A stretch of 64,000 bases of DNA, from NCBI RefSeq assembly GCF_037042905.1, contig NC_087250.1, positions 6,388,001 to 6,452,000 on the forward strand, in the 5' to 3' direction. A model generated the notes under the pieces. It was not told where the DNA came from and did not search any database. It was given only the letters and a program-made list of their open reading frames with translations. This stretch comes from Lytechinus pictus (taxonomy: Eukaryota). The translations under genes and the position numbers were made by a program. Within the stretch, counting starts at the first letter, position 1. Each line of letters opens with the position of its first letter. Below, in pieces: positions 38,287 to 64,000 of the stretch.

Positions 38287-38442
38287 GGAGGTGCCGTGAC
38301 CGAGTGGTCTAAGGTGCCGACTATACATTGAAAGTCTGGGGTTCGATCCCCGGCCACGGCACCTATGTCCGTGAGCAAAGCAATTAATCGACACTGCTCT
38401 TTTATCCTGTATTCAAATAAACAGAAAATGCTATATGCATTC
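38287..38442 (+). mobile_element. tRNA-derived SINE, 5' part (3' remainder at ~41867-41905)
   Basis: GGTGCCGTGACCGAGTGGTCTAAGG (A box) ... GGTTCGATCCCCGGCCACGGCACC (B box and acceptor-like stem), followed by a non-tRNA tail. Confidence 0.8.
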
Positions 38443-38447
38443 CGTAT

Positions 38448-41400
38448 GTGCATTCTCTCGATATTAAACCAGTATTAAAGTGTGATCATAATGCTGTTTC
38501 GATGAAACTTCAGGTGACAACAAAAAAGAGAGGAAAGGGTTTTTGGAAATTGAACAATTCCTTACTTGGTGATGAAATGTATAAAAAAGGCATAACAAAT
38601 GTTATTAAAAAGATCAAAATGGAATATAACAATTTTGATAATCAATTGAAGTGGGAGATGTGTAAAGTTAAAATAAAGGAGTTCAGCATTAAATATGCTT
38701 CTGATGTGTCAAGGAAGAAGAGGGAACAGATAACACACATTGAAAAAAGATATAATCAACTTTGTGAAAAACTTGATAAAGATCAACGTAGCAAAGATGT
38801 AGACGAAATTAGTCGTTTAAAACGTGAGATCAATAAATGGTATGAATATCAATGTAAAGGTGCGTATGTTCGCTCAAGAGCAAGGTGGCTAGAGTTTGGA
38901 GAGAAATCGTCTAAATATTTCTTCCAGCTTGAAAAAGCAAAAGGCAAAAAGAAAGAAATAGACTGTATCGATATAAATGGAAAGATTATTAAGGAAGATG
39001 GGAAAATTTTGTCAAATATACATGAATTCTATACTAAACTGTATCAAAAAGTTGATGTAAGATCTGATTTTAAAGAATATATAGGTAACTTAAAGTTATA
39101 TGTTTTGAATGATGAAGAAGGAAATATATGTGAGGGAAAGCTTACAGAAAATGAATGCTGGCTCGCACTAAAGTCAATGAATCTGAACAAGTCTCCGGGT
39201 AGTGACGGCCTAAGTGTTGAATTTTATAAATGCTTTTGGGAGGATTTGAAACAGATGGTAGTTGCCAGCCTGAATCAGGGATATGACAAAACACAATTGT
39301 CCTCAACTCAAAGTCAAGCCATCCTTACTCTTTTGTATAAAAAGGGCAACAAAAATCTTCTAGATAATTGGCGGCCCATATCACTTCTTAATATAGACTA
39401 CAAATTAGCAGCTCGTGTTTTGACTGTTAGATTGAAGAAAATTATTCATTGCATTGTATCTGAAGATCAGTTTGGTTTTATGAAAAATCGTTCTGCACCT
39501 GAATGCATTAGACTTGTACAGGACACAATTGATTTTTGTCAAAGTACTGAGACACCTGGTATCATTATGTCATTAGACTTTAAGAAAGCCTTTGACACCG
39601 TTAATCATAATTTCTTATTCACCTTACTAGAAGAACTTGGTTTTAAAAATTCGTTTATTAAATGGATTAAGACTTTGTATAATAACGCCAGTGGTAAAAT
39701 AATTAATTATGGTTGGATATCTAAAAGGTTTTCGATTAACAGGGGTGTAAGACAAGGATGTCCATTGTCTGCCCTTTTGTTTATTATTTTGGCAGAAGTT
39801 TTAGCAGCAAAAGTTAAACAGAATTCAAAAATTAGAGGTATTCAAGTACCTAGCCCTGAATCAGATTGTCCAGATTTCATAGATATTCGCATAGTTCAGT
39901 TTGCAGATGATACTACAATTTTTTGCAGATTCTGTCAACTCTGTTAAAGAATAAGGAGAGAAGTAGAAAATTTTGGTAGAAATGCCGGTCCCAAAATTAA
40001 TTGGTCAAAATCTAAGTTCATGAGATTTAATATCAATGTCCAAAACACCGAGGATTTAGAATTTACAGAAAATGCTATAAAATGTTTCGGGGTTTATGTT
40101 GGAAAATTTCATAGAGAAGTTGAAAACTTAAATTGGGAAGGAAAAGAGAACAAAATAAAAAGTACTTTAGATTTATGGAAAATGCGAAAACTAACTTTGT
40201 ATGGGAAGGTTACGGTCATAAAGCATCTAGTCACTTCTCAATTAGTATATACAGCAATAGCAGTCCCAGTACCATTGAAAATAATCAAATTGATTATTAG
40301 ATTAATATACTCTTTTTTATGGAATTCCAAAGTTGAAAAGGTCAAGCGAAATGTATGCTGTAATTCTGAAATAGAAGGAGGCCTCAGAATGGTCAATTTA
40401 CTTTACAAATTTTCTTCTCTTCGTTTATCATGGATTCAAAAGTATATCTCAGGTGAAAAAAAACCATGGAAAATTTTATTCAATTGTTGGATCAGTAAAA
40501 TTTCTGACATTCCTATGTGTTTGAAATTTAATTGCCAAAAAAATGATATAATAAGAATATGCAAAAGAAAACAATTACCAGTGTTTTACATTGACCTTTT
40601 TAGATCGTGGTCTGAAATAAAGTATATGCACATGTTTAATGTTTGCAATGTAAACCAAGAAATTATCTGGTATAATAGTAATATAAAACATGAGAAAGAA
40701 ACGTTATTTTTTCAAAACTGGATCAAAGAGGGGATTTATACAGTGGGACAGGTTATAGAAGATGGGAATTGGAAAGATTTTTCATTTATTAGCAACTATT
40801 TTAACCGCAGACAATTGCTTACTTCTTTCGAATTGTCAAAACTCAAAAAGGCATTTCCACACTTCTGGTTAGAGAAATTACGTAATACAAGAATCCCACC
40901 ACGGCTACAAAAAGAAGAACCCAATGTGATTGAGTTAGCAACAGGTGACTTAATAAATGTCGAGAAAATGTCAGCTAAACACTATTATAGTTTGTTAGTG
41001 GATAAATATAAAGAAGAACCCGTTTGTTTACATTTTTGGCAAGACCGTTTAGACTTGTCAAACGAATTTGATTGGAGTGAAGTATTTAAATTCAAATTTC
41101 AGCAAATTAATGACAATAAAATAAAACAATTTAATTTTAAACTTTTTCACAGAATATTGCCCAGTAAAGACAATTTATGCAAATGGGGAATTTCGAATGA
41201 TAATTTATGTCGTACTTGCAATTGCAAGGAAACTATATGTCATTTTTTATTGACGTGCAAAAAACTGAGGTTATTTTGGAAAATAGTTTCGTGTCTTATT
41301 CGGAATATTTTTGGCCTTGATATTGACATTAATGAAAAAATTATTATTATAGGATATGATATAGGCAACCGAAAAACAAAACTCGTCAATTTCATCCTTA

Positions 41401-41588
41401 ATTATGCCCAATATACTGTATATAAGAATTATGTCAAAGAATGTAATGATCAAAAGAAACATGTGTTACATGGAAACTATCTATTGAAAGATTTGAAAGC
41501 AGAAATAAGATTTCACCTAAGTTTAAAGTATAATCAGAAAAGATTTAATGAAACTGAGTTGCGGAAGATACGTTTTTACTTTGAGTGA
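38448..41588 (+). pseudogene. LINE ORF2 (end of endonuclease, RT, C-terminal CCHC), one frameshift near 39920
   Basis: DH..GFWKLNNSLL, KSPGSDG, NWRPISLLN, LDFKKAFD, GVRQGCPLS, QFADDT, and CRTC...ETICHFLLTC. Confidence 0.9.
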
Positions 41589-42892: not shown

Positions 42893-45260
42893 TAACAACC
42901 CCCCCCCCCACCCTCAGGTCCACCATAAATGTTCCAGAATCTACTTAAAGATTCCACATTTAAGGACGTTCCACAGTTATGCTTGTGCGGATATGATCTG
43001 CGCATAATTTACACTCTGCGCGCTGACGTCACAATGGATGAACAGGTGATTAACTAGCTGCGGGTACGAGCTGATTTTTCTCATCTTCTGCACTTTAAAT
43101 GCAGATCCGCTGCGTTATTTCATGAAGCTAAAAAATTGAATTATTCCATGGACCATTCAAAAAAAAATCTATACAATTTCAAAATACTTTACTCTGTAGT
43201 GCTGCCAAGAATCACGAATATTACCCCGAGTTTGAATAAATGGTAGTGATTTTGATTTTTTCTCACATAGATACAAAGAATTCGGCGCATTTTTGGTGTT
43301 TTAAAAAGCACATTTGCTCTAATAAAAATGCTGATAGTTTAAAAACAAGCACATGAACCCCCATTTTTTAATGTTTGTACCTCTTAGGCATACCTTCTTC
43401 TACAACTCTGCAAATTTTGGTGAAAATGACATGGATTTTGAATAAAGTGCAGCATTTATTATACGTTTGTAGTTTCTTACTGAAATTTCAAATTTTTTTG
43501 CACAGTTTACGATCGCATGCAGCTTCAAAATGATAGTATACCCCAAAGAAATGTTTATTTGTATGTTGACAGTCATCTTGTTTCATGCAGTCCTGTTATC
43601 CCCATATTCTGTAAGATCTTGCTTAATGGTAATAATATTTCACTATTATGCCCCACTCTAAAATTATGGATCTAAAATTATGTACTTTTAATTGTCGAGG
43701 GATTCAAGATTATGTGAAAAGACGTAAAGTGTTTCATTATTTAAGATCCATCCAAAGTGACATTACTTTTCTTCAAGAAACCCACTCGTTAAAAGCAGAT
43801 GAAATATTTTGGAAACAGCAATGGGGTGAAAAAGCATGGTTTTCTAGCTATGCATCAAATAGTCGAGGGGTAGCCATTTTGATCCGGAACCATGTATCCA
43901 TGGAAATAGAATTACTTTACTCTGATCCTAATGGGAGATACCTGATAATATCTGCAAAAGTAAATGGGTTGCCCCTTATTTTAGTCAATTTATACGGTCC
44001 GAATAATGATGACCCTGACTTTTTTCTTCAAGTTTTTAGTAAGATAGAACAATTTAACTACACTTCAATGATTTGTGCTGGCGATTTTAATGCGGTCTTA
44101 GGTTCTCTGGATTATCAAGGGGGTAAGGTCACCAAATCAAACAAGAAAGCAAGTGATATGTTATTATTATTGATAGAAGAGTTTAATCTTTGTGATATTT
44201 GGCGTAATTTTCACCCAAACCTTAAGCAGTATACGAGGCATCAAAAATCCCCTAAAGTTTTATCAAGACTTGATTTCATTCTTGTTTCAGATAATTTTGT
44301 CACTAATTGTGTGTAATCTAAAATAGTTCCAGGAATTCAATCTTATCATTCTCTTGTTATTCTAAAATTTAAAGACGCTCAGCCAGTAAGGGGTCCAAGC
44401 TTCTGGAAACTGAATTGCAAGTACTTGCACAATGATGTAAATTTTATCGAAAGTGTTAAAGAGAAAATTGAAGAGTTTAAATTAGTTCATTCTGCAAGTG
44501 ATTGTAACCCCAATATTTTATGGGACTCTCTTAAATGTACAATTACCGGTGCATGTATAGAATACTGTGCACGCAAAAAGAAAGAAAAGAATTTAGCGAA
44601 AAGACATCTTTTGAAAGAAATAGAGGATAAAGATAATAAATTAAGTATTGATGTAGACAATGATGAGCTTTTTTTAAAAAAAAAGAGTTTTTACTGCAAG
44701 CATTAAATGACATCTTAGATGAAGAAACTCAAGGTTTAATTGTTCGGTCTCGAATCCGATGGGCTGAAGAAGGAGAAAAGAGTTCCAAATATTTTTTGTA
44801 ATCTTGAAAAACGAATGGGAGAGAAGAAAAGTATTTTTAAATTAAAAAACGAAAACGATGATATTATTGTCAATCAACCCATTATATTGAAAGAAATTCA
44901 TTCATTTTACGACACATTGTATAGGAAGCCATGCAATGCTGATAATTCAGATGAATCAAGTAATGTAATTAATCATTTTTTGCAATCTATTGAAATTCCA
45001 CAGCTAAGTGATGTCGATAAGGATTTTCTTGAGAAGCCTATTTCTAAAAAGGAACTATATGATACACTGACATCAATGAAGCACAACAAATCACCAGGTC
45101 TTGATGGCTTACCGGCAGAATTTTATATTGTATTTTGGAAGGATCTGTCTGATATGCTATTAGACTCATTCAATTTTTCCTTACAAAATGGGTTAATGTC
45201 GACCTCTCTAAGAAATGGCGTTGTTACTTTGATCCCCAAGAAGGATAAGGACACTTCCTA

Positions 45261-45447
45261 CGAAAGAACAAACAAGTCGACAGACAAGGCGTACAATTGA
45301 ACTCTTCATTTAACACGAACCGCAGCAGGTAGGAGATGCTACCGAAGTGCATACAAAGCACGCAAAAACAGTGAAAACACTTCAACAAGCCAAAGCGACC
45401 ACAAGGTGGCGCTATCACATAAAATACGCAACACACAATTAATGGCG
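45261..45447 (-). repeat. 3' LTR
   Basis: Direct repeat of 51432-51615, preceded on the minus strand by AGAAGGAGTGAAGAAGGGAAAG-TGATCA. Confidence 0.95.
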
Positions 45448-45894
45448 TGATCACTTTCCCTTCTTCACTCCTTCTGGGGGGGGGGGGGTATGATATAACA
45501 GAGATTGCGGAGACACAGATAAACCGAAAAAATGAAAACCTGTAAGAGTGAGTTATAGCCGGTACAAGCATGAGGTACAATCATGACCACAATATTGAAA
45601 GGGAATATGACATAATTGAAAAACAGTTTGTCCATGATAACCACCAGATAGGTACATCACCTATAGAGCTGGCGAAGAAGGGAATGCTTCACACAAAATG
45701 TTCGTTGGAAACACAAGCAAAAAGAACGGGTGAATGACGGAAAGGCAACAATAACCGTCATACTGGAAAATAACGCGACAACCAACTGTGACATCCTAAG
45801 CGTAAGTCCAAAAAGGTAAACGTCACATATAAACGGGGCAAAGGGAGGGGGAGGGGGGGGGTCGATTAGTCACAAATAAAGTCCTCGAAACGAG

Positions 45895-48800
45895 CTAGCA
45901 TGCGTCGACGACGCTGGGGGCGTTGCAGGACAGGGGGGCTACTGGGCGGTGAGGGGGGAGCGTTGTCACAGGTGGAGAACCAGTGGCAACCTCATCATCG
46001 TCGCTCTGTTGGGGATCCGCGGAGTCCAATCGAGGCCGGGAAGGGAAACCAGGCACCTTCAGACAGTCTGACGTCTTCACACGATAAGATGAGTCACGGA
46101 GCTGGGAGCCAACAAATTTCCGTCAACAGAGCCGACAAGGTAGCGGGGGCGTGCCTGAGACTTGGTGCGATCACCACGAAGATTGACCAGGTCGCCGACC
46201 TCAATACTTACATCACCCGGAAGGAGGCCGGATGGGGTCTTCGCACGTTCACTGTGGGGGTGGTTAGCCATACGCTGGTGATGCTGACTGGCGATGAGTT
46301 CTTCGTCAGAAATGGGAATCTGGGCATGGGAGAATCGGTCGCATTGAGTCCATATCTCACGCGCTGACAGGCCTCGCGAACGAAGACCGCTGTTTAAGCG
46401 GGCTGTGGCCAGAGACAACGTCAAAGGAGAGAGGGGCTCGCCGCGAGGAGCATGGCGGAGCAGCTCGTCCTGAAGCTCGCGTATGGCCTTCTCAGCAACC
46501 TGGTTCTTATTGGCATTCTTGGGGCGGCCGAGCTCGATGGATATGCCAAGTGAAGCAAGCTGGTGGTCATCCCGTAAGGAGGAAAAACCAGGGGCAGTAT
46601 CAGTTCGAATGACAGCATGGGGGCCATCGAGTGGATGGAGCTCAACACATAGACGAATGAGAGCTTCACGAAGAGTATCCCGGCGCTCATCAGCAATGAG
46701 GCAAGTAGCTGTGTATGAGGATACAGATTCACGGAGCACAAGGATCAACTGCTTTGCCCGCTTAAGAACATCTGCTGCGAAGTTAACGCCGACAACTTCG
46801 GGGGGATCGCCAGAGGACTGAGAGGCAATTGTAAAGGGAGCAGTGCGGAGAGAAGCACACTGGTGGCATCGATCAGTGACTTGCTTGATGGCATGATCCA
46901 TATCCAGGGCGAAGAAGTGCCTGTTGACAACAGATTTGAGCTGGCTCTGTGTTGGGTGATCAGGTTGGAGGTGAATGGATGTGAGGATACCAGCAAGGAC
47001 GTTCCGAGGCACAATAATGCATTCACGTGGGGGAAAGGAGGGGAACTTCTCTACGCACCACAAGGAGACCGTCACGTGCTATTGTGGCGACGCGAAGATA
47101 TCGCTTGACATCCTTGATGTCAGTCAATTTCTTGGATGGACGCGTCCCCTGATGGAGGTGGGCATGAGTGCGTCGAAGATCAGAACATTCGACCTGGATG
47201 CTGTGCCAGGCCGACCGGGACGTGAAGGGTAGTTTCTCTCGGCCAGCAAGGACTTCACTCGGTGTGATCCGGTGGACAACGGAATCTTCGGTTGTGTGGA
47301 TGAACAAGCAAATCTGACACGAGGGATCAGTGCAAGGAGTAGCATTGCGACTGGCAAAGTCAGAAGGGATGTTAACAGCACCAGCCAGGTGCTGGATAGA
47401 ACACTGATACCTACTGACATTAGAGAGGAAGGTATATACCCGAGGACTTGCAGAGAATGCACCACGACACAGCTTCTCAAAGGCTTGGACGCAGGGTTTG
47501 CTACCCGTGAGAATACACGAGCGGTGACGGGATTGGACCATATATGGGCCGAAATGAGTACAAGCAGCCGTGATGGACAGGGCTTCGACTTCACAGGGCA
47601 ACCATGTGATCTGTCGCCCGCGCAGTTTTGCACTGTAAAAGCCAGCCAGATGATGTTTGCCAGCTCTGGTAACATACATAGTAGAGCTAATTCCATGGTT
47701 CCGGACAGCGCCATCCGTGACGATCCAAATCTGATCAGCTGGATGGGGGAGTGTAATGGTACGAGGAGAGGAAAGGGCATCTCGACAAGCCTGTAAGGCA
47801 TCGTGTAAGTCATCAGACCAGTCAATGCGGTCAGAAGAAGAACGGCCAGCAACAACAGCATCTAAGGGACTGAGCAACACAGCACAATGAGGAACAACTC
47901 GTGAAATCATCTTGTAGGCACCAATGAATGACCTCAGACCCTTGACAGTTTTGGGTAGGTCGCAAGAGGCCAGGGCTGCGACACGATGGGGGCTAGAGCG
48001 ACGAGTGCCCTGAGACCAGATCCAACCAAGAACGCCAGTCGACTTGGGGCAAACGACTGTCTTCTTTGGGGAAAGGCGAAGTCCAGCAGAACGGAGAGCA
48101 TGTAAGACACGAGTCCAATTATCCAATAGCTCATCGGGGGTATTTCTCCCACAAAACAAGTCATCGGCTAATTTGACAACAACACCTTCATGTAACAAAT
48201 CACCAAGAACACGACACATCAGATCCTCAAGAGCTGTTTCTGATCCAGGCATTCCCACAGCCGACCTAGTGTAAACCCTTACTCCGCGAAACGGGGTTAC
48301 CACACCACAATATTTCATTGAGACCTTCGCAAGGGGTATCTGGTAGAAGGCACTGACAAGGTCTGAGGTAATAAGGTATCGTCATTGACCAATATGGCGA
48401 AGGGTTGAGTCAACGTCAGGTAAGAGGGATGGTTGGGGCTTTGAGTAACGTCCAACATCGGCAAAGGCTGTTACGAGTCTAAAACCACCATTGGGTTTCT
48501 TCACCAAGAAAGAGGGATTGAGATACTCTACAGTAATGCCTACATCTTCTGGGTGGGCAAACACACCACACCGACCGAAGTTCAACGAGGGATGGGCGGG
48601 CATACATGGGCAAGCGACCCTTCCGCTGAGGAGGCTGGACCGGCCCCATGTTCACCACTGCCTCAAATGGACCAGCAGAACCGTAGTAACCTGTGAAAGC
48701 AGGATCGAACACGTCATCAAACTCAGAATGGAGCATGACAAAGTACTGCCGTAAGCTAGGAGAGAGGACGCTATCCGGATCTAAAGAGATAGCATCAGAG

Positions 48801-51221
48801 TGTTTAGTTACTCTAGGCACAGAGGGCTGTGGCTTGACCGGCTCAGGTACAAGTGTGCCAGATTTAGTTGGCTCATTAACATACACAGGCCTAACTTGAC
48901 AAAAATGCTCGTTCTTGCGGAGAAGGCGAGGCTCATCCGAGAGGTTTGGGATACGAACTTTTCCTGCCACGCTTGATACGATAAAGGGATTGGGCCATGA
49001 CTGGCGAGCGCTAGAAGGAACTTTCGAACTGACAACACGGGGTTCGAGGGCAACAGTCTCATGGGATAACAAATCAGCAGGAACTGTCAATTCAACAAAA
49101 TCACCAGGCCACAGGACGGTGGACTGCGGAGGGGCACGAAGGACATGTGCCCGACGAACAGAATGTGACTTCTTGTTAGACAAGGGTTTTGAGCCATAAG
49201 TAATCACTAAGTCATCGCCAATGCATATTTGGCGCTTAGCAGGCCGAACGCAGACGTCATTGAATTCCATGAAAGGAGTCCCAGCGAGAACTTCAACATC
49301 CAACTCATGAACAAAAAGGCCCTCAAACACAAGTTGCCGAGATTCACGTGAGAAGGTGAGACATGTTTCCCCTACTACATTGTAATTCCAAGGGAGATAC
49401 ACCATCCGCCTGATGTGCAGATTGCGAACTAGGTTTTATTTCGCCGCCAAGGGCTTGCACAGTTGCGGCACGAATCATGTTACCTGTGGCACCACTGTCT
49501 ACCGTAATACGGGTGGCATGGTGTCCAAAAAACGCATCAAAATACGGAGACTGGCGAATCTGTACTCGCAGGGCAGAAGTTTGAGACTGCTGAGGATTCT
49601 CGTCTGTGGGGCTGACGGTTGATGGAGATCGTTCAGGCTCCCTGGCATCACTGTCGTCGTCAAAGTCCTCGTCTCCAAAGATATTGGCGACTTGACGGGC
49701 TTTGGCTATGAAGCGACGATCTTGTTCAGGCAAATATGTGCAATCGCTAAGGTAATGAGTATCGGGCCAGCGCGCCTCGCGGCAAAGAGGGCGGTATTTG
49801 TTATGACGTGGTTTATTCGAATACTGTGATTTCGTTGTGCGGCGTGGTTGAGCCTGAGTGGGAAACTTGCTCATGCGTCCCTTCCGCTGAGGGAAAGAGG
49901 CAGTAGCACGCATAGCACGAGAGTTTTCGGTGGAGTAAATCTCACCGAGCAGGCTGTTGAGGGCTTGAGAAATCTCTGGCTTGAGAGACGAGAGAGATCG
50001 AGCACGCAGCTCAGTGCCATACCTCTGCTTTACCAGACGAGGGAGATCAGAATGGATCAATTGTAACCATTGGAGGACTAAAAAATTATCAAGTGTAGGA
50101 GTCAACTCTTCATCTTCTGAAATAAATTCACCATGGTGAGATATACCAGCATTAACCTTAAAGGAGAATGAAACTCTTGGAGCAAGTTAGCTTTTGTGAA
50201 AGCAGAAAAATCAAAGAATAAGATCAACAAAAGTTTGAGTAAAATAGGACTAGCAATAGAAGAGTTAGGAGCATTTGAATGTCGAGATCACTAATGCTAT
50301 GGAGATCCTCCCATTGGCAACGCAACCAAGATCTATGATATCACAGATGAACAACTCTCCCCTTTTGGACACTGAAAATACACCCCAAAACATCTATTTT
50401 TGCTCATTCTTATCATATGACAAACGATTCATCAATGATATAATGTTGTGAAACCTCTGTACTTGTCCTCTCATAAAGAGAACACCTCACCTTGTGATAG
50501 ATTCTATAATAAGTGAGAATATAAGTGAAATAAGTACTAAGCAATGAGGGAGTTGTACGTGTGTGACATCACAGATCTTGGTCGCATTGCCAATGGGAGG
50601 ATCTACATGGCATTAGTGATCTCAATATTTAAATGCTCATAACTTTCTTATTATTCATTCAATCTTCCTTAAACTTTCAACAATATGTTTCTTTGAATTT
50701 TTTCTTTGATATGGATTCAGCTGGTTTCAAGGGTTTCATTCTCCTTTAAGGAGATTATCATCAACAAAGGCAAGAATCCTTTGATACAAATCTTCTGGGC
50801 GTTCATCCGCCTCTAGCTTGATAACGCAAAAATCAAGGAAGTGGGCACCACTACTTTGAAAGCCATAATGTAGCCTGATCTTGCCCCAAATGTCACCCAG
50901 TGAAGTAGAATCACGGATTATAGAATTACGTGATATTATCGGGCAGTAATTCGCAATTTGCCCAACCATTAGCTCCAACATGCTCGCTTTCTGTTGGGCA
51001 GACCGCTTTGTCTCTGGCGGCTCGGAAATGGGGTCATTTGACATACCACGTAGTGGGTCACGTTTGGTTTTCTTATGCCATGTAAAATCGGTGCCTAAGA
51101 ATATTGCAAAGTTGGGATCGAGGGTGAGGATGTAAATCAAATTCTGCTTCCAATTCTCAAAAGATGTGACTGATTCGTTTTTGGTGAGACACCATTGTTT
51201 GGGTGCTCTGGGGGTAGCCAT
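45895..51221 (-). pseudogene. gag-pol: gag-pol polyprotein (frameshifted; gag split by MITE)
   Basis: Start [10 protein letters not shown]. Protease [27 protein letters not shown]...GMPGS...KLADDL; RNase H WIVTDGA...EVEAL...SDFASR; integrase H..H..C..C, FAAD, RTD, KNANKNQVAEKA. Confidence 0.9.
50162..50745. mobile_element. Kolobok-like MITE inserted in gag
   Basis: TTAA|AGGAGAATGAAAC ... GTTTCATTCTCCT|TTAA. Removing it restores DNLLKVNAGISHHGEFISEDEELTPTLDN in frame. Confidence 0.9.
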
Positions 51222-51421
51222 AGTTTACTTTTATTATTAGTGACACGAAATTGGATAGATGGGACTATGATACTTGATAGATATACCGTACCGTTATGCC
51301 GAGCCGTGTATGTGAGTGAAGGTTAGTACACTTACCCCCAACCAGCTAGAGTTGGATGCCTGACTGCTAAGCCAGCACGAAGACCGTTTGGGCAGTGAAA
51401 AGGCTAGGATCCGTTTCTGAA

Positions 51422-51431
51422 GCTGCCACCA
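51422..51431 (-). promoter_or_regulatory. Primer-binding site (probably tRNA-Leu)
   Basis: TGGTGGCAGC directly follows the 5' LTR and is complementary to the ...GCTGCCACCA 3' end of eukaryotic tRNA-Leu. Confidence 0.7.
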
Positions 51432-51615
51432 CGAAAGAACAAACAAGTCGACAGACAAGGCGTACAATTTGAACTATTTATTTAACACGAACCGCAGCAG
51501 GTAGGAGATGCTACCGAAGTGCATACAAAGCAAAAACAGTGAAAACACTTCAAAAAGCCAAAGCGACCACAAGGTGGCGCTATCACATAAAATACGCAAC
51601 ACACAATTAATGGCG
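51432..51615 (-). repeat. 5' LTR
   Basis: Direct repeat of 45261-45447; minus-strand ends CGCCATT...CTTTCG. Confidence 0.95.
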
Positions 51616-51841
51616 CTATTTGAAAAATGTTAGACCTATATCTTTGCTCACAGTAGATTATAACATTTTAGCCAAAACTCTTGCAAATCGTTTGAAAAAA
51701 TGTCTCACATATTTGATTCACCCTGACCAATCCGGATTCCTAAAGGGCAGGAATATTTGGGACAATATCAGGTTAATTAATTATATAATAGAAAATACAG
51801 AATTTAACCAAACTGCAGGTACAATTCTCCTTTTGGATATT

Positions 51842-52385
51842 GGATTGGATTGAAAATCACATTTATTTTCTTCAAACAGATACAAAATAATATTTGACAT
51901 AGTAACGAATACAGTATATATTTCGACACAATTTTGAAGGAGGCGAAAACCCGGAAAGCAGAGCTTGAGTTGGGGTCGCCAGATACAAATAAATAACAAG
52001 TTATGTACTGTAATGACATAATATGTAATTGCATATAAATAAGAAAGTTAAGAGTAGAAAAAGAAACACAGATGGAGAAAAGGGAGAGGAAATGTAGGCA
52101 TTAGAAGATAAGTTCATTTGAATAACAGAGTAAACTGGTCGCAATTACGTAACATTGGTACATGTATAAAGAGCTTGAGTGACATTTGTCTAGCAGAGCA
52201 ACAGGTAAGGCATGTGCATTAATTAACATTAGAAATGGAAGGTAGTTCAAGCATGTCAACATGTCGATTATCTCTGTCAGTGCTAGCATTTAAATAAAGT
52301 TTCATTTTATAAGAGAAAGATTGCAAAGAACGAGAGTTTTGTAGGCGGGCTGGTAAACTGTTCCAAAATTTTGGCCCAGAGTAGC
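51842..52385 (-). mobile_element. Strongly 5'-truncated L2/CR1-group LINE 3' end inserted in the L1 RT
   Basis: GGATATT duplicated at 51835-51841 and 52386-52392. Encodes RYSGPKFWNSLP...SF..KMK and ends in a short (CAATC)n tail. Removing it restores LLLDIQKAFDSV. Confidence 0.8.
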
Positions 52386-55300
52386 GGATATTCAAAAAGC
52401 TTTTGATAGTGTTTCCCATGATTTTCTTTTCCATGTATTAAAACAGTTTAATTTTAGCGACAAATTCATTAAATGGATGAAAGTATTCTACTGTTCCAGG
52501 AGAAGCTATGTCACTAATTATGGACATTTGACTAACCCCATAAACATGGAAAGAGGAATTTTTCAAGGGTGTCCCATTTCCCCTTACTTGTTTTTATTAG
52601 TGATCGAAACAATGGCTCTTGCTATTAGACAAAATAAAAACATCAATGGAATTCCTATTGAAAGTACATCTACTGAACTGAAAATTTCTTTGCTAGCTGA
52701 TGATTCTACATGTTTTATTGATGGCTCTGAAAAATCCTTTAAATCATTATTTGAAACAATTGATAATTTTTCTGAATGTTCTGGGTGTAAACTCAATATT
52801 TCCAAATCAGAAGCAATATGGATCGGATCTAAAAAGGGTTCACATTTAGCTCCATTTTCTGAGAATGGTTTGAAATGGAACAAATATTATTTTAAAACTT
52901 TGGGTATACATTTTTCATTGAACACAAAACAATTATATGATCTTAATCATAAGGTGAAACTTAAATCCATTGATAGTACTTTAAACTGTTGGCGCGCTAG
53001 AAATGTATCTCTAGCTGGGAAGATCTGTGTCATAAAGACCCTATTGCTGCCACAACTTCTTTATTTTTTTCAGTATTGTGTATCAAAATACCCAATAAAT
53101 TGTTTAGACAATTGAATGCAATTTTGTTTAGATTTATATGGGGTGTAGGCAGTGATAGGGTCAGAAGACAATTTATATGGAATGATTTTAGTGGAGGTGG
53201 CTTAAAAATGATTGATCCATATGCTTTCTCTGTGGCACAAAAAATGTCATGGGTCAAAAAGCTCCTGGATGATAATTATGAAAGCTTGTGGAAATCAATT
53301 GAAATGTCTGCTTTAAGTCATTTTAATGATAAAAGTGATATTTTATGGAAATCCTATGCTCCTCTCAGTATTTTGAATAAATTAACATCCTTTCAATTGG
53401 CTGAATCACTCCATACATGGTATATATTCAGAGAATATTTTGTCAAAACTGAATTCAATGTAACATTTTCTTCAATAGGTTTTTGCCAGTGCATTTGGTT
53501 TAATAAAAATATCTGTTCAAAATCAAAGCATTATTTTTTGTACCAAGACTGGCTTGACAATGGAATAGTTTATAATAGTGATTTGCTTAACCCTCCCCAT
53601 CCTGGCCATAAACTCTTTGAAGAACTTGTATTAGATTATGATATCAGTAAACACGATAGGAGGAAATGCAATTTTCTATTGAAAAATATACCATCTGATT
53701 GGTTGGTCACATCCGACCTGACCACGGATAAGATATTTGACAAAATAAGAAACCAACTATTGAAAACTCACAAGGTCCCCAAATTTGCATATAGAGTTAT
53801 ATTAGAACCATGTCTTTCAGAAAAACAAATGACTTTTTAAAAAGACCTTGATGATACTGGTCAGGTCAGTTGGGAAAAAAATCATCTAAATAATTTCAAA
53901 TGTACTATTAGTATGCGCATTCGTTCTTTTTATTTTAAGTTATTTCACAGAGCAATAGGTTTAAATGATTTTTTGTATAAAATTAAAAGAAAAGACTCCC
54001 CTAACTGTTCTCTTTGTAAAGCTGCTCCTGAAACGTATGTCCATCTGTTTATAGAGTGTCCTGTTGTTAAACCCATTTGGGTTGAAGCTATTAAGGCTAT
54101 TGCTAAGAAAAGTGATAAACTACAAACTATCTCTATATTTGAAAAAAATGTTTGGTTTTGAGTCCGACAAATTCGTAACTTTTTGGTTTCTCTTACTTAA
54201 ATATTATATTTATATATGCAAATTTCAAAATAAGCCACTAAGTTTTGAAGGTTATAAAGCCTTTATTGCTGTTAACAAAAAACTTGAATATGGTATTGCC
54301 AAAAAAAAATAATAAACTTAGCATGCATTTTCGGAAATGGAGATTTAACATATGACCACTGATATTGCTATTTAGCACATGAAATTTATACATGTACCAT
54401 GTGTACATTTCCATCTTCATTTAAATGTACTTTATCATGTTTATGGGAGTATTTTTGTCTTCTTTTTTTAATGATTGACTTTTCTTTGGGTTTTGCTTTA
54501 CAAGTGGTGTGTAATGCTTATTTGGTATATTATGCTGCAGTATTTATGTTTTGGTGTTTTATATATCTTATTATTATTCTTATCATTATTGTTATTTTTT
54601 TTTGCTGCTTAACTTTTTTTTATTACATGTATATTGATTCGATGATTGTAAACCTTTGAAAATCAATAAAACATATTTAAAAAAATGAAGAAAAAAAATG
54701 AAGAAAAAAAAATTGTATAATTCACGCCAATTATAATTATTCCCTAACAATACATAACTGATAAAGTACGATTCTATCAATAATACTCACGTATTTTATG
54801 GAAAATTGGTGCCGTGTACTGAAGTGATTTTCTCGCATAAACTCCCCATTCAGTGTGCGCGCGTACGTTATATTTGCAATAGGACACTTTTTCGCGAACT
54901 TACCCGTCGAGTTGCGTTATAAGCCAAGGTCGCTTTTAAGACCTTAACAAACGTTTGACCACAAGGTTTTAATGGGGTTTGAATTAAAGGGGCCAACGGG
55001 CCATCTTTTCCTTGATATTATACATGCTATGGGATCTATTAAAACAGTAACTCTTTGAAGTGGGGGATTTGTATTGGATATTCTTTGTTAGCACAATTAA
55101 AACAGCTTTAAACGTTATGAGGCTATCGTTACGTTTCCAGCGGCAGGTATTTTCATCATAATGTTGTCATCAATCGCCCTTTCCCTTTTATTCAAAGATT
55201 TCTCGATGGCTGGTCTTTCGACTTCAAAACAACGTCTGGTGTTGAGGTGAGCATGAGTTGTGTCTAGTATCGAAGAAGTATAGTTTCACTCTAAATTGAA

Positions 55301-61681: not shown

Positions 61682-64000
61682 TCAATAGAAATAGTCTGGA
61701 GGTCTTCTCTGCCTTCTTGGATAGCGTGAAGTGTTGACGTCTGAGTCACTGGAATCATCAGGTAATGGAATTCCTGGTTCTACTGTAGTCTCAGTAGAAG
61801 CCTGAGTAGGTTGTCCATCATTCACTACATCTGGTTCACAATCGATATTCACCTCGTCTGTTAGGTCGGCTGGCTGAGTCCTCCAGGCCTCTGGTACATC
61901 ATATCCATTGTAGAGCTTCAGGCGGTCGAAGTGGACCACTCTTAGTTTGCTCCTGGGGGATCTCTGGATACGATAGGTCACGTCGGAAAGTCTAGACACC
62001 ACTTGGTAGCGACCTTCCCATTTGGGTGCTAATTTGGGGCTGACTCTCTTCTTCCTGGCGTTGTTGCGGAGCCATACGAACTGTCCAGCTTCATAGAGTT
62101 TCCCATCTGATTTCCGATCATAGTTCCTCTTCTGGCGTCTCAGTTCAACACCCTTACGTTCCTGGGCCCTTTGGTACGTCTCGTCCATTCTTTCCCTCAG
62201 CTGCTGAGCATAATCAGTCCACTCACTTCCATCCTGTTTGGAGAATTGCAAATCGATAGGCAGTGAAACCTCTCGGCCAAACATCATCATGTTTGGAGCC
62301 TCCTTGATTGTGTCGTGCGTGGAGCTTCTGTATGCAGCTGCGGCATAGGGTATGTACCTGTCCGAGTCCCGCTGGTGCTTCTCTGGATCCAGTAGAATAG
62401 CAAGAATGTTGATCAGTGTCCGGTTGAACCTTTCAACCATCCCATCACTATTTGGGTTGTACGGTGTCATCCTTGTCTTTCTGACACCCAGTAATAACAC
62501 ACTTCTTGGAAGATGTTGGACTCGAAGTTCCTGCCCTGGTCACTATGCATCTCATTAGGAACTCCATAGCGGCAGATGAATTCGTCCACAAGCTTCCGTG
62601 CCACTGTTTCAGCTCTTTCATCTGGTATTGCATATGCCTCGACATGCTTGGTATAATAGTCAGCTACCACAATAATGTATTTGTTTCCATCATCAGTAAC
62701 TGGCAATGGTCCCATAATGTCCAGGGCAATCCTCTCCATCGGATATCCACTCTGCCTCTGCTGTAGCGGAGCTCTTTTCCCTGGTCCTGCCTTCTGTCGG
62801 CGAGCGCAGTCTGGACATTGCCTAATGAAGGATCTGACATCTTCCTTCATTCCTACCCAGTAGAAACGTTCCTGTACTTTGTGTAGAGTCTTCGTCAAAC
62901 CAAGATGTCCTGCCATGGAAGAGGAGTGAAGGTCCTGTAGCACCTCCGGTATCAGAGCTTTAGGAAGTACATAACGCCACCTGACATCTCGTCCTCTCTT
63001 GATTCCCACCTCCTATAGAGAACACCATCTTTGACCTGTAGCTGGTCCCAGTGATCCAGAAGAACCTTGACCTTAAAAGGATATGCCGTCGTCTCTTCCC
63101 GGGATGGCTTCCTCCCTTCCACCAGTGCATTCCTGACCGGATTTATGTTAGGATCTTCCTGTTGGGCCTCTTGGATGTCAGCTAGGTTGTCATTCCTCAA
63201 CGTGATGACGTTGATATTCCCAGTGTCTCCTCCATAGATGCAGCCTTCTTCTCGCTTACACTGCCTGCATGGTCTTCGAGATAGAGCGTCAGCGTTGCTG
63301 TGAATCCTTCCAGCTCTGTGTATAATCTCAATGTCGTAGCTTGATATGACTTCCAGCCATCGTGCCAACTGACCTTCAGGTTGCCGGAAATTCACCAGCC
63401 ATCTCAGAGCTCCATGATCAGTCCTCACCTGGACGTGGCGACCATACAAATACTGCTTGTAGTGTTTGAGGTACACTACTACAGCAAGTAGTTCCTTACG
63501 GGTTACACAGTAGTTCATTTCTGGTTTGCTTAGGACTCGGCTTCCATAGACAATGACCCGTTCCTAGCCATTCTGTATCTGGGAGAGTACACCGCCGATA
63601 CCATCATTGCTGGCGTCTGTGTCCAGAATGAACCTTCCCTCCACAGTAGGGTACACCAGTATTGGAGCCGTGACTAGTCTGTGCTTCAGTTCCTCGAAGG
63701 CTTCTTGGCACTCCTGGTTCCACTCGAACTTCCGTCCCTTCTCTGTCAGTTGGTGCAGAGGTCTAGCAATTCTGGCAAAGCCTTCAACGAAGCGACGGTA
63801 ATAAGATGCAAGGCCTAAGAATCCACGGACCTCCCTCACTGACTCGGGTCTGGGCCATGTCCTGATTGTTTCTGTTTTGTCCTTCTCTGTCGATATGCCT
63901 TCTGCAGAGACGACGTGCCCGAGGTATGAAACAGAAGTCTTGAACAAGTTGCACTTCTTTGGCTTCAGTTTCAGCCCTGTCTGTCTTAGGCGTTCGAACA
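61682..64000 (-). pseudogene. pol: Ty3/Gypsy pol (RT C-terminus, RNase H, integrase), frameshifted, continuing past the window
   Basis: YLGHVVS, GFLGLASYYRRF, LDTDAS, TRKELLAVV, RTDH, NADALSR, H..GH..C..C, DIMGP, SDQGRNF, GMVERFN, WEGRY...VHFDRLK. Confidence 0.92.

Follow-up and report, generated by a model that had tools for sequence, protein, structure and literature searches.

The DNA analysed here, called the window below, is a 64,000-nucleotide stretch of the Lytechinus pictus genome (assembly GCF_037042905.1, contig NC_087250.1, forward-strand positions 6,388,001 to 6,452,000), in which positions are counted from the first letter. On its minus strand, at 45261-51615, lies a long terminal repeat (LTR) element of 6,355 bp, delimited by direct reading and by alignment. 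The element is almost certainly a copy of the Troyka LTR retrotransposon, structurally complete and coding-dead, inserted into the reverse transcriptase (RT) gene of a long interspersed nuclear element (LINE). Its CG...CG LTRs are flanked by a 3-bp target-site duplication (TSD), a primer-binding site (PBS) abuts the 5' LTR, and a miniature inverted-repeat transposable element (MITE) is lodged in gag; leaving the MITE out, the element measures about 5.8 kb. The features of the element and of its host are as follows.

43636..45257, plus strand: upstream part of the host non-LTR retrotransposon, with an APE-type endonuclease (43636-44316; Pfam Exo_endo_phos, E 1e-16) and the pre-RT region.
45258..45260, no strand: left copy of the TSD, CTA on the plus strand and TAG on the element strand, identical to 51616-51618.
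45261..45447, minus strand: 3' LTR of 187 bp, CGCCA...TTTCG on the element strand, set by LTR alignment and comparison of copies.
45448..45453, minus strand: TGATCA, lying between purine tract and 3' LTR; on the element strand its three LTR-adjacent bases are TCA.
45454..45475, minus strand: polypurine tract AGAAGGAGTGAAGAAGGGAAAG with one internal T, preceded by a run of 13 C at 45476-45488.
45869..46161, minus strand: C-terminal tail of the integrase and of Pol, in two further frames with one in-frame stop (tblastn with protein P0001, alignment).
46119..47048, minus strand: integrase, with an HHCC finger (H...H at 46956-46973, CHQC at 46857-46868), the D/D/E residues and KNANKNQVAE at 46491-46520 (Pfam Integrase_H2C2, E 1e-05; weak rve).
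47029..48567, minus strand: RT and RNase H, with LADD at 48160-48171, TDGA at 47707-47718 and an in-frame stop at 48382-48384 (Pfam RVT_1, RT_RNaseH_2, RT_RNaseH).
48575..49381, minus strand: C-terminal part of the protease and the linker to the RT, in a frame unlike that of either neighbour (tblastn).
49383..50162, minus strand: C-terminal part of Gag, with the zinc finger at 49740-49793 (first Cys changed to Arg) and the protease active site DSGA at 49488-49499.
50162..50745, no strand: nested MITE of 584 bp in gag, set by comparison with copy L053, genome search and RNA read ends.
50742..51221, minus strand: N-terminal part of Gag, start codon at 51219-51221.
51422..51431, minus strand: PBS TGGTGGCAGC, complementary to the last 7 encoded bases of tRNA-Leu(TAG) plus the added CCA.
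51432..51615, minus strand: 5' LTR of 184 bp.
51616..51618, no strand: right copy of the TSD, CTA on the plus strand.
51619..53115, plus strand: downstream part of the host non-LTR retrotransposon, RT, with RVT_1 positions 7-75 at 51620-51853 and 73-203 at 52357-53115.

Both LTRs, read on the element strand, start with CGCCATTAA and end with TTCTTTCG (CGCCA...TTTCG). The original prediction, made from the letters of the window, had described LTRs of about 185 bp with CG...CG termini, differing by about three substitutions and two indels; the lengths of 187 and 184 bp bear this out, and the alignment of the two repeats gives exactly 3 substitutions over 183 aligned positions, a divergence of 1.6%, together with two indels, one of 4 bp and one of 1 bp. 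Directly after the TTTCG of the 5' LTR comes the PBS TGGTGGCAGC, running from 51431 down to 51422 without a gap, as had been proposed. Upstream of the 3' LTR, the purine tract AGAAGGAGTGAAGAAGGGAAAG is followed by TGATCA at 45448-45453. Outside the LTRs, the fourth flanking base is mismatched, so that the duplication in the window copy is exactly 3 bp. On the element strand of this copy a T follows both LTRs, and with the window copy alone an LTR ending in CG with a 3-bp duplication and one ending in CGT with a 2-bp duplication both fit.

Other copies settle the boundary. The genome, of 812 Mb in 368 contigs, gave 38 matches when searched with the LTR, and 10 full-length copies were tabulated, namely the window copy and nine others (L053-L061). 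In all nine full-length copies that keep both outer ends, a perfect 3-bp TSD is seen (TAG, CTG, CAG, CAA, TAG, CTG, CAT, TTG and ATG); the tenth lacks part of its 3' LTR, so that no TSD can be scored in it. TSDs of 3 bp are also found at two solo LTRs (ATT, TTG) and at an element that later insertions have split (CTA). A 3-base match arises by chance at 1/64 per element, and chance is therefore excluded. The base after the 3' LTR varies among the copies (T, C, C, C, T, C, C, T, A), which places the LTR end at CG and rules out an LTR ending in CGT with a 2-bp duplication. Among the 10 copies, 36 of the 39 scorable outer LTR ends are CG and the three exceptions, AG, CT and CA, each differ by a single base: the 5' LTR starts with CG in 9 copies and AG in one and ends with CG in 8, CT in one and CA in one, while the 3' LTR starts with CG in 10/10 and ends with CG in 9/9. 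Neither TG...CA ends nor a TSD of 4-6 bp occurs among the other genomic copies, whether full-length, solo or split. The tabulation of further copies and solo LTRs, which had been suggested as a check on the prediction, thus upholds the claimed 3-bp TSD in the nine full-length copies and in the three solo or split LTRs.

All 12 of these TSDs, which come from the full-length copies (window and L053-L061), L008, L025 and L017/L027, have a central A or T; in this small sample, this may point to a symmetric target preference. In a separate observation, the 3' LTRs of L017 and L023 (C6:19233471 and C6:19349034) are followed by 15 identical bases, which suggests that a segment containing a Troyka copy was duplicated, at a spacing of about 115 kb.

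The insertion site supplies the same boundary from the host side. The left flank ends in ...KKDKDTS followed by 'ta', up to 45260 (open reading frame, ORF, 44740-45300), and the right flank resumes with 't' and LKNVRPISL (ORF 51611-51853), matching Pfam RVT_1 positions 7-75. A paralogous LINE in the same window (38421-39947) aligns with the left flank up to residue 308 and with the right flank from residue 314. Since this paralogue is contiguous across the insertion point, only the element and three bases part the two LINE halves. The flanks and the paralogue confirm that deletion of the element with one CTA restores the RT frame of the host LINE (KDKDTSYLKN), as had been predicted; the Troyka copy is inserted into the RT gene of a LINE. 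The empty site before insertion is expected to read ...TCCTATTTG... with one CTA.

Between the LTRs, Pfam gives, in this order, a weak match to an aspartic protease, then RVT_1, two models for RNase H and the H2C2 finger of the integrase. In tblastn, the 1,619-aa protein P0001, the best public match to the RT-RNase H frame, aligns with the element collinearly over residues 2-1619 in seven pieces. The coding region follows the order of a single Gag-Pol unit, with the zinc finger followed by protease, RT and RNase H, then integrase, the frame of which is broken in the window copy by five frame changes, two in-frame stops (one at 48382-48384) and the 584-bp insertion in gag. Because of the MITE in gag, the frame changes and the stops, the window copy cannot encode its proteins or move alone, and it is dead. 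The earlier description of the element as 'complete' therefore holds for its structure, with both LTRs, the PBS and the purine tract in place, and fails for its coding region. No env-sized or otherwise long frame lies between the integrase and the purine tract of the window element.

Identity to the other copies is 88-93% for the window copy, against 96-99% among those others, and the LTR pairs within elements differ by 1-6 substitutions. Eight of the other full-length copies keep both LTRs intact, and their longest open frames span 591-1,636 codons; one copy has a frame as long as public Gag-Pol proteins, and the rest are interrupted. In three RNA runs under the same species label, about 6% of each being read, the Troyka body has almost no coverage, with a depth of 0-3.4 in a few bins. 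In its best-covered stretch (X5, 48446-49540) every RNA read carries fixed differences, so these reads derive from other copies.

Of 8,000 candidate proteins scored against the RT-RNase H frame, 1,046 match at E <= 1e-3. The best relatives, about 1,620-1,650 aa long, are 63-87% identical in RT-RNase H, and the nearest named protein, from a sea urchin, shows 69% identity. In 60 full-length homologues aligned with the window fragments, the RT motif C reads [L/I/M]ADD without exception (LADD 40, IADD 19, MADD 1); the LADD that had been noticed in the window RT, confirmed at 48160-48171, is accordingly a family trait and not decay. The window integrase has an HHCC finger and D, D and E residues at spacings of 57 and 36 residues. 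The predicted block KNxNKNxVAE around its catalytic Glu is found at 46491-46520 as KNANKNQVAE; the family conserves KNxNKNPVAE, and the window copy has Q for P. Pfam models SH3_Tf2-1 and Integrase_p58_C have no match in the window integrase at E <= 0.1, and 53 of the 60 homologues lack the GP[FY] motif in their last 350 aa. Neither Peptidase_A17 nor DUF5641 is matched in the window ORFs (Pfam). In gag, the zinc finger CX2CX8-10HX4C, with spacers of 8, 9 or 10, is present in 97 of 120 homologous proteins.

These features are those of Troyka. The group was reportedly first described by Kapitonov and Jurka in 2008 (Repbase Reports 8:510-516), with CG...CG ends and 3-bp TSDs. Kojima 2025 (J Gen Virol 106:002143, PMC12440569) gives CG...CG ends, 3-bp TSDs and LTRs of 100-400 bp, a range that includes both window LTRs, and records the 5' terminus CGCCA in 573/603 and the 3' terminus TGGCG in 522/603 Troyka LTRs, a gag finger CX2CX8-10HX4C and an integrase without the GPF/Y motif (PMC12440569). 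Gong & Han 2024 (Virus Evol 10:veae110, PMC11673190) describe the same elements as 'Kuafuorterviruses', in which IADD, VADD or LADD replaces YXDD. The window element shares with Troyka the CG...CG ends with a 5' CGCCA, the 3-bp TSD, the LTR length, the protease-RT-RNase H-integrase order after the zinc finger, [I/L]ADD in place of YXDD, the lack of a GPF/Y module and relatives restricted to aquatic animals. According to Kojima, Troyka occurs in aquatic animals only, in 11 phyla (PMC12440569). The named relatives come from Lytechinus, Haliotis, Nematostella, Actinostola, Gigantopelta, Ptychodera, Mytilus, Crassostrea, Oculina, Pocillopora and Synaphobranchus, and these hosts, which include sea urchin, abalone, mussels, oyster, sea anemones, corals, acorn worm and the eel Synaphobranchus, fall inside that range. 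Among 37 metagenomic Troyka-like loci, 21 likewise have CGCCA after the purine tract.

The assignment to Troyka that had been proposed is thus supported, every trait listed for it being a published hallmark of the group. The group had been called little-studied as well, which does not stand: the two dedicated papers, of 2024 and 2025, cover its distribution, termini, TSDs, RT motif and phylogeny. All the unusual traits of the window copy are already published, and this dead copy adds nothing new on the group.

For the RT tree, 31 rows and 275 columns were analysed with IQ-TREE: 20 Troyka-like rows, 7 Gypsy rows (four canonical and three Gmr1-like) and 4 BEL rows. The Gypsy and BEL RTs were taken from the same genome, its RT loci including L062, L066, L069 and L079-L085. 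The window RT groups with 19 public Troyka-like proteins with a support of 99/95, on a stem of 3.8 substitutions per site. The BEL rows are separate (100/100), and the seven Gypsy rows form one group (75/86), apart from the Troyka-like clade in the best tree. Nesting of the RT in an ordinary Gypsy clade, which had been named as a refutation, is thus not seen in the best tree; this exclusion is not statistically firm in approximately unbiased (AU) tests.

Several observations weigh against the assignment to Troyka. Firstly, the window 3' terminus is TTTCG and not the canonical TGGCG; TTTCG accounts for only 2 of the 603 LTRs in PMC12440569, where both records belong to a sea-urchin lineage with relaxed 3' ends (TTGCG, TTACG, TTTCG). 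Secondly, the gag finger of the window copy reads R-X2-C-X8-H-X4-C, its first Cys having changed to Arg, and so departs from the family finger; from a typical Troyka the copy also differs by its broken frames and nested MITE. Thirdly, the only two metagenomic contigs in which both LTR ends are clean have unmatched flanking trinucleotides (CAA/CAG and CTT/CAA), likely owing to assemblies collapsed across multi-copy elements. Finally, the tree was built without Repbase or GyDB Troyka references and without Copia rows, 'Troyka-like' being assigned by similarity, motifs and named hosts, and in the AU test neither the union of the Troyka-like rows with canonical Gypsy (p 0.072) nor that with Gmr1-like Gypsy (p 0.151) is rejected.

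The most serious alternative is that Troyka forms a derived branch inside Ty3/Gypsy (Metaviridae), where Repbase first filed it, and that the CG ends, the 3-bp TSD and xADD are innovations of this branch. Ty3/Gypsy elements resemble the window element in domain content, in the type of RNase H and in an HHCC and DD35E integrase, and the nearest solved structures are of Ty3 RT (4ol8, E 2.8e-20; 7q5b, E 8.4e-20). The two AU tests and the modest support of the Gypsy group (75/86) leave room for such a placement, and the domain order and RNase H type are common to Gypsy (PMC12440569). Against it, the best tree keeps the seven Gypsy rows together and sets the Troyka-like proteins on their long stem. 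Gypsy elements typically have TG...CA ends and TSDs of 4-6 bp. These traits, and YXDD, are not those of the window element; the seven Gypsy RTs of this genome read YLDD or YIDD, in contrast to LADD. The integrases differ as well: the Gypsy elements of this genome carry SH3_Tf2-1 and Integrase_p58_C, SH3_Tf2-1 being present in the three same-genome Gypsy elements with integrase that were scanned, and the window integrase has no match to either; none of the 134 genome matches to PF24626 falls in a Troyka copy. A GPY/F-type integrase module is optional in some Gypsy lineages (PMC12440569). In the four data sets of Kojima, which hold a larger reference, Troyka is sister to Gypsy, Retroviridae, Caulimoviridae and Loki-Odin together, and its inclusion in Gypsy is unsupported (PMC12440569); Gong & Han reach the same conclusion, with the Troyka group outside Gypsy (PMC11673190). 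A firm claim that Troyka lies outside Gypsy has its basis in these two papers and not in the RT tree built here. A placement inside Ty3/Gypsy is improbable.

That the element is an ordinary Gypsy, BEL/Pao or endogenous retrovirus whose LTR ends were misjudged by one or two bases has next to no chance of being right: the T after both LTRs of the window copy leaves CG or CGT and a 2- or 3-bp duplication open, but the base after the LTR varies among copies, the three outer bases match in 9/9, and the frame of the host LINE is restored only when the element and three bases are removed, so that the genomic copies and the solo and split LTRs refute it. BEL/Pao elements (Belpaoviridae) share the protease-RT-RNase H-integrase order with the window element. 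In addition to the separation of their rows (100/100), the BEL RTs of the same genome have YMDD or YVDD where the window has LADD, and DUF5641, found in 4/4 BEL integrase regions scanned (L075-L078; shown for 3/4 sampled families), is missing from the window element, as is Peptidase_A17. An endogenous retrovirus is opposed by the lack of an env-sized frame after the integrase.

In the same genome, Gypsy elements L062, L066 and L069 (C6:7.56 Mb, C2:38.05 Mb and C6:10.58 Mb) carry the integrase (H2C2, rve, SH3_Tf2-1) upstream of RT-RNase H in one frame, an order that we take to be Gmr1-like; several integrase-first Gypsy elements have open frames of about 1,490-1,530 codons. Genome matches number 145 for the BEL/Pao model PF05380 and 134 for the Gypsy SH3 model. 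With the Copia model PF07727 no genome candidate is obtained at E <= 1e-30, and none in the control genomes either, so that absence is not shown.

Returning to the Troyka copy, its replication signals were compared with the tRNAs of the genome and with a scan of metagenome contigs, which yielded 79 Troyka-like loci. In the same genome, ARAGORN identifies at L043 a tRNA-Leu(TAG) gene that ends in ...CCCACCGCTGCCA; once CCA is added, its 3' end is complementary to the PBS TGGTGGCAGC. The match covers 10 contiguous bases in the window family and 14 in a diverged relative (L028). The comparison of the PBS with the tRNA set, proposed with the original prediction, thus leads to the 3' end of tRNA-Leu; the tRNA-Leu genes were found by searching with this 3' end only. 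A search for a tRNA whose acceptor stem, deduced from the PBS, pairs perfectly gave 35 places, none of which is tRNA-like, and ARAGORN finds no tRNA in the window or in L042. As a side observation, matches to TTCAAATCCCACTGCTGCCA, a tRNA-like 3' end, are clustered 65-500 bp apart at C2:19992026-19993083 and C2:20805499-20806046; they may represent either an array of tRNA genes or tandem repeats derived from tRNA.

In the metagenomic loci, the PBS was scored where a gag start and at least 150 bp upstream were available (44 loci). The exact TGGTGGCAGC abuts the LTR in 31 of them. In 34 of the 44, ...GGCG or a near variant is followed directly by TGGTGGCAGC (31 loci) or by a T variant (3 loci), 111-220 bp before gag; another five differ from TGGTGGCAGC by one base, so that 39 of the 44 are at most one base off. 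Many of the 44 are near-duplicates, and about 24 distinct forms are told apart by the eight bases after the PBS. The spacer was scored in the 37 loci that include the end of Pol and reach 250 bp or more beyond it. Of these, 21 have a purine run that is separated from CGCCA by a short spacer, and they represent about 10 distinct families; the remaining 16 lack the motif under the pattern used. The spacer is 3 nt in 17 of the 21 (TCA 9, CCA 3, TTG 3, TGA 2), 6 nt in three (TGGTCA 2, CGATCA 1) and 1 nt in one doubtful case. In the genomic copies, TGATCA is seen in 9/10 and TGATCT in one. The 6-nt spacers, TGATCA included, read better as a pyrimidine, two purines and TCA, that is, as a once-interrupted purine tract followed by TCA. 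The TGATCA that had been described as a spacer is therefore present as a sequence, and in the light of the other Troyka-like loci it is better taken as the end of an interrupted purine tract plus a 3-nt TCA spacer. The words PBS, tRNA and polypurine are absent from the main text of PMC12440569 and from that of PMC11673190; a conserved 10-nt tRNA-Leu PBS abutting the LTR, with a 3-nt spacer after the purine tract, is a small addition to what is published on Troyka.

Following the general cycle of LTR retrotransposons, an active relative would be transcribed from its 5' LTR, tRNA-Leu would prime the minus-strand DNA at the PBS, and the purine tract would prime the plus strand. A DD35E integrase would then join the CG-3'OH ends to target phosphates 3 bp apart, producing the 3-bp duplication. 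After insertion, the window copy accumulated the 1.6% LTR divergence, the MITE in gag, the five frame changes and the two in-frame stops. The putative integrase with altered end recognition and cut stagger that had been proposed fits these data.

The PBS, the spacer and the 3-bp TSD together suggest how this unusual integrase might handle DNA ends. The two junctions read as inverted repeats, YCA/CGCCA... and ...TGGCG/TGG (the slash marks the LTR edge). The 3-nt spacer before CGCCA, and the terminal CG followed by the TGG of the PBS, suggest three extra bases at each cDNA end. That linear cDNA carries three extra bases per end throughout Troyka, as against the two usual in retroviruses, is a tentative idea drawn from sequence comparison, and we regard it as rather doubtful. 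If it were true, and if RNase H left the tRNA CCA on the minus strand, both 3' ends would be CG-TGR; the integrase would trim the trinucleotide and join with a 3-bp stagger. The junctions would be explained equally simply by blunt, unprocessed cDNA ends like those of Ty1, the plus-strand primer being cut 3 nt past the purine run.

For annotation, LTR finders that require TG...CA ends and TSDs of 4-6 bp will miss or mis-trim such elements; the impact statement of PMC12440569 likewise holds that knowledge of the odd features of Troyka should help repeat-annotation tools.

The MITE in gag (50162-50745) is flanked by TTAA at 50158-50161 and 50746-50749 and has a perfect terminal inverted repeat of 13 bp, AGGAGAATGAAAC, within arms of about 196 bp that are 75-77% complementary. 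Its limits are seen against the uninterrupted copy L053, and RNA reads end at its borders (50157/50158 and 50749/50750). The TTAA duplication suggests a piggyBac-type mobiliser. Searching the genome for the MITE yielded 1,423 first-look candidates, of which 40 were scored, every one full length with 98-99% identity; on account of this identity, the MITE family expanded recently, after the Troyka insertion. In the three runs, the MITE is covered by RNA at a depth of about 230-640 in both orientations, with reads from many copies. A>G changes are confined to reads whose first mate lies on the minus strand (50273, 50335, 50615, 50624), and T>C changes to the opposite orientation (50280, 50292, 50298, 50626). 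Per run, 20-29 places show A>G and 21-27 show T>C, and any other kind is seen at 8 places at most. This strand-specific pattern is the one expected from A-to-I editing of hairpin RNA, although RNA reads alone do not prove it.

The window as a whole is a nest of transposable elements. The RT of the host LINE is broken again at 51854-52356, a gap of about 500 bp between RVT_1 position 75 and the match to positions 73-203. A second LINE occupies 38421-41588 on the plus strand, with RVT_1, zf-RVT and two long frames parted by a single stop. On the minus strand, at 61682-62539, a C-terminal fragment of a Gypsy integrase carries Integrase_p58_C and SH3_Tf2-1.

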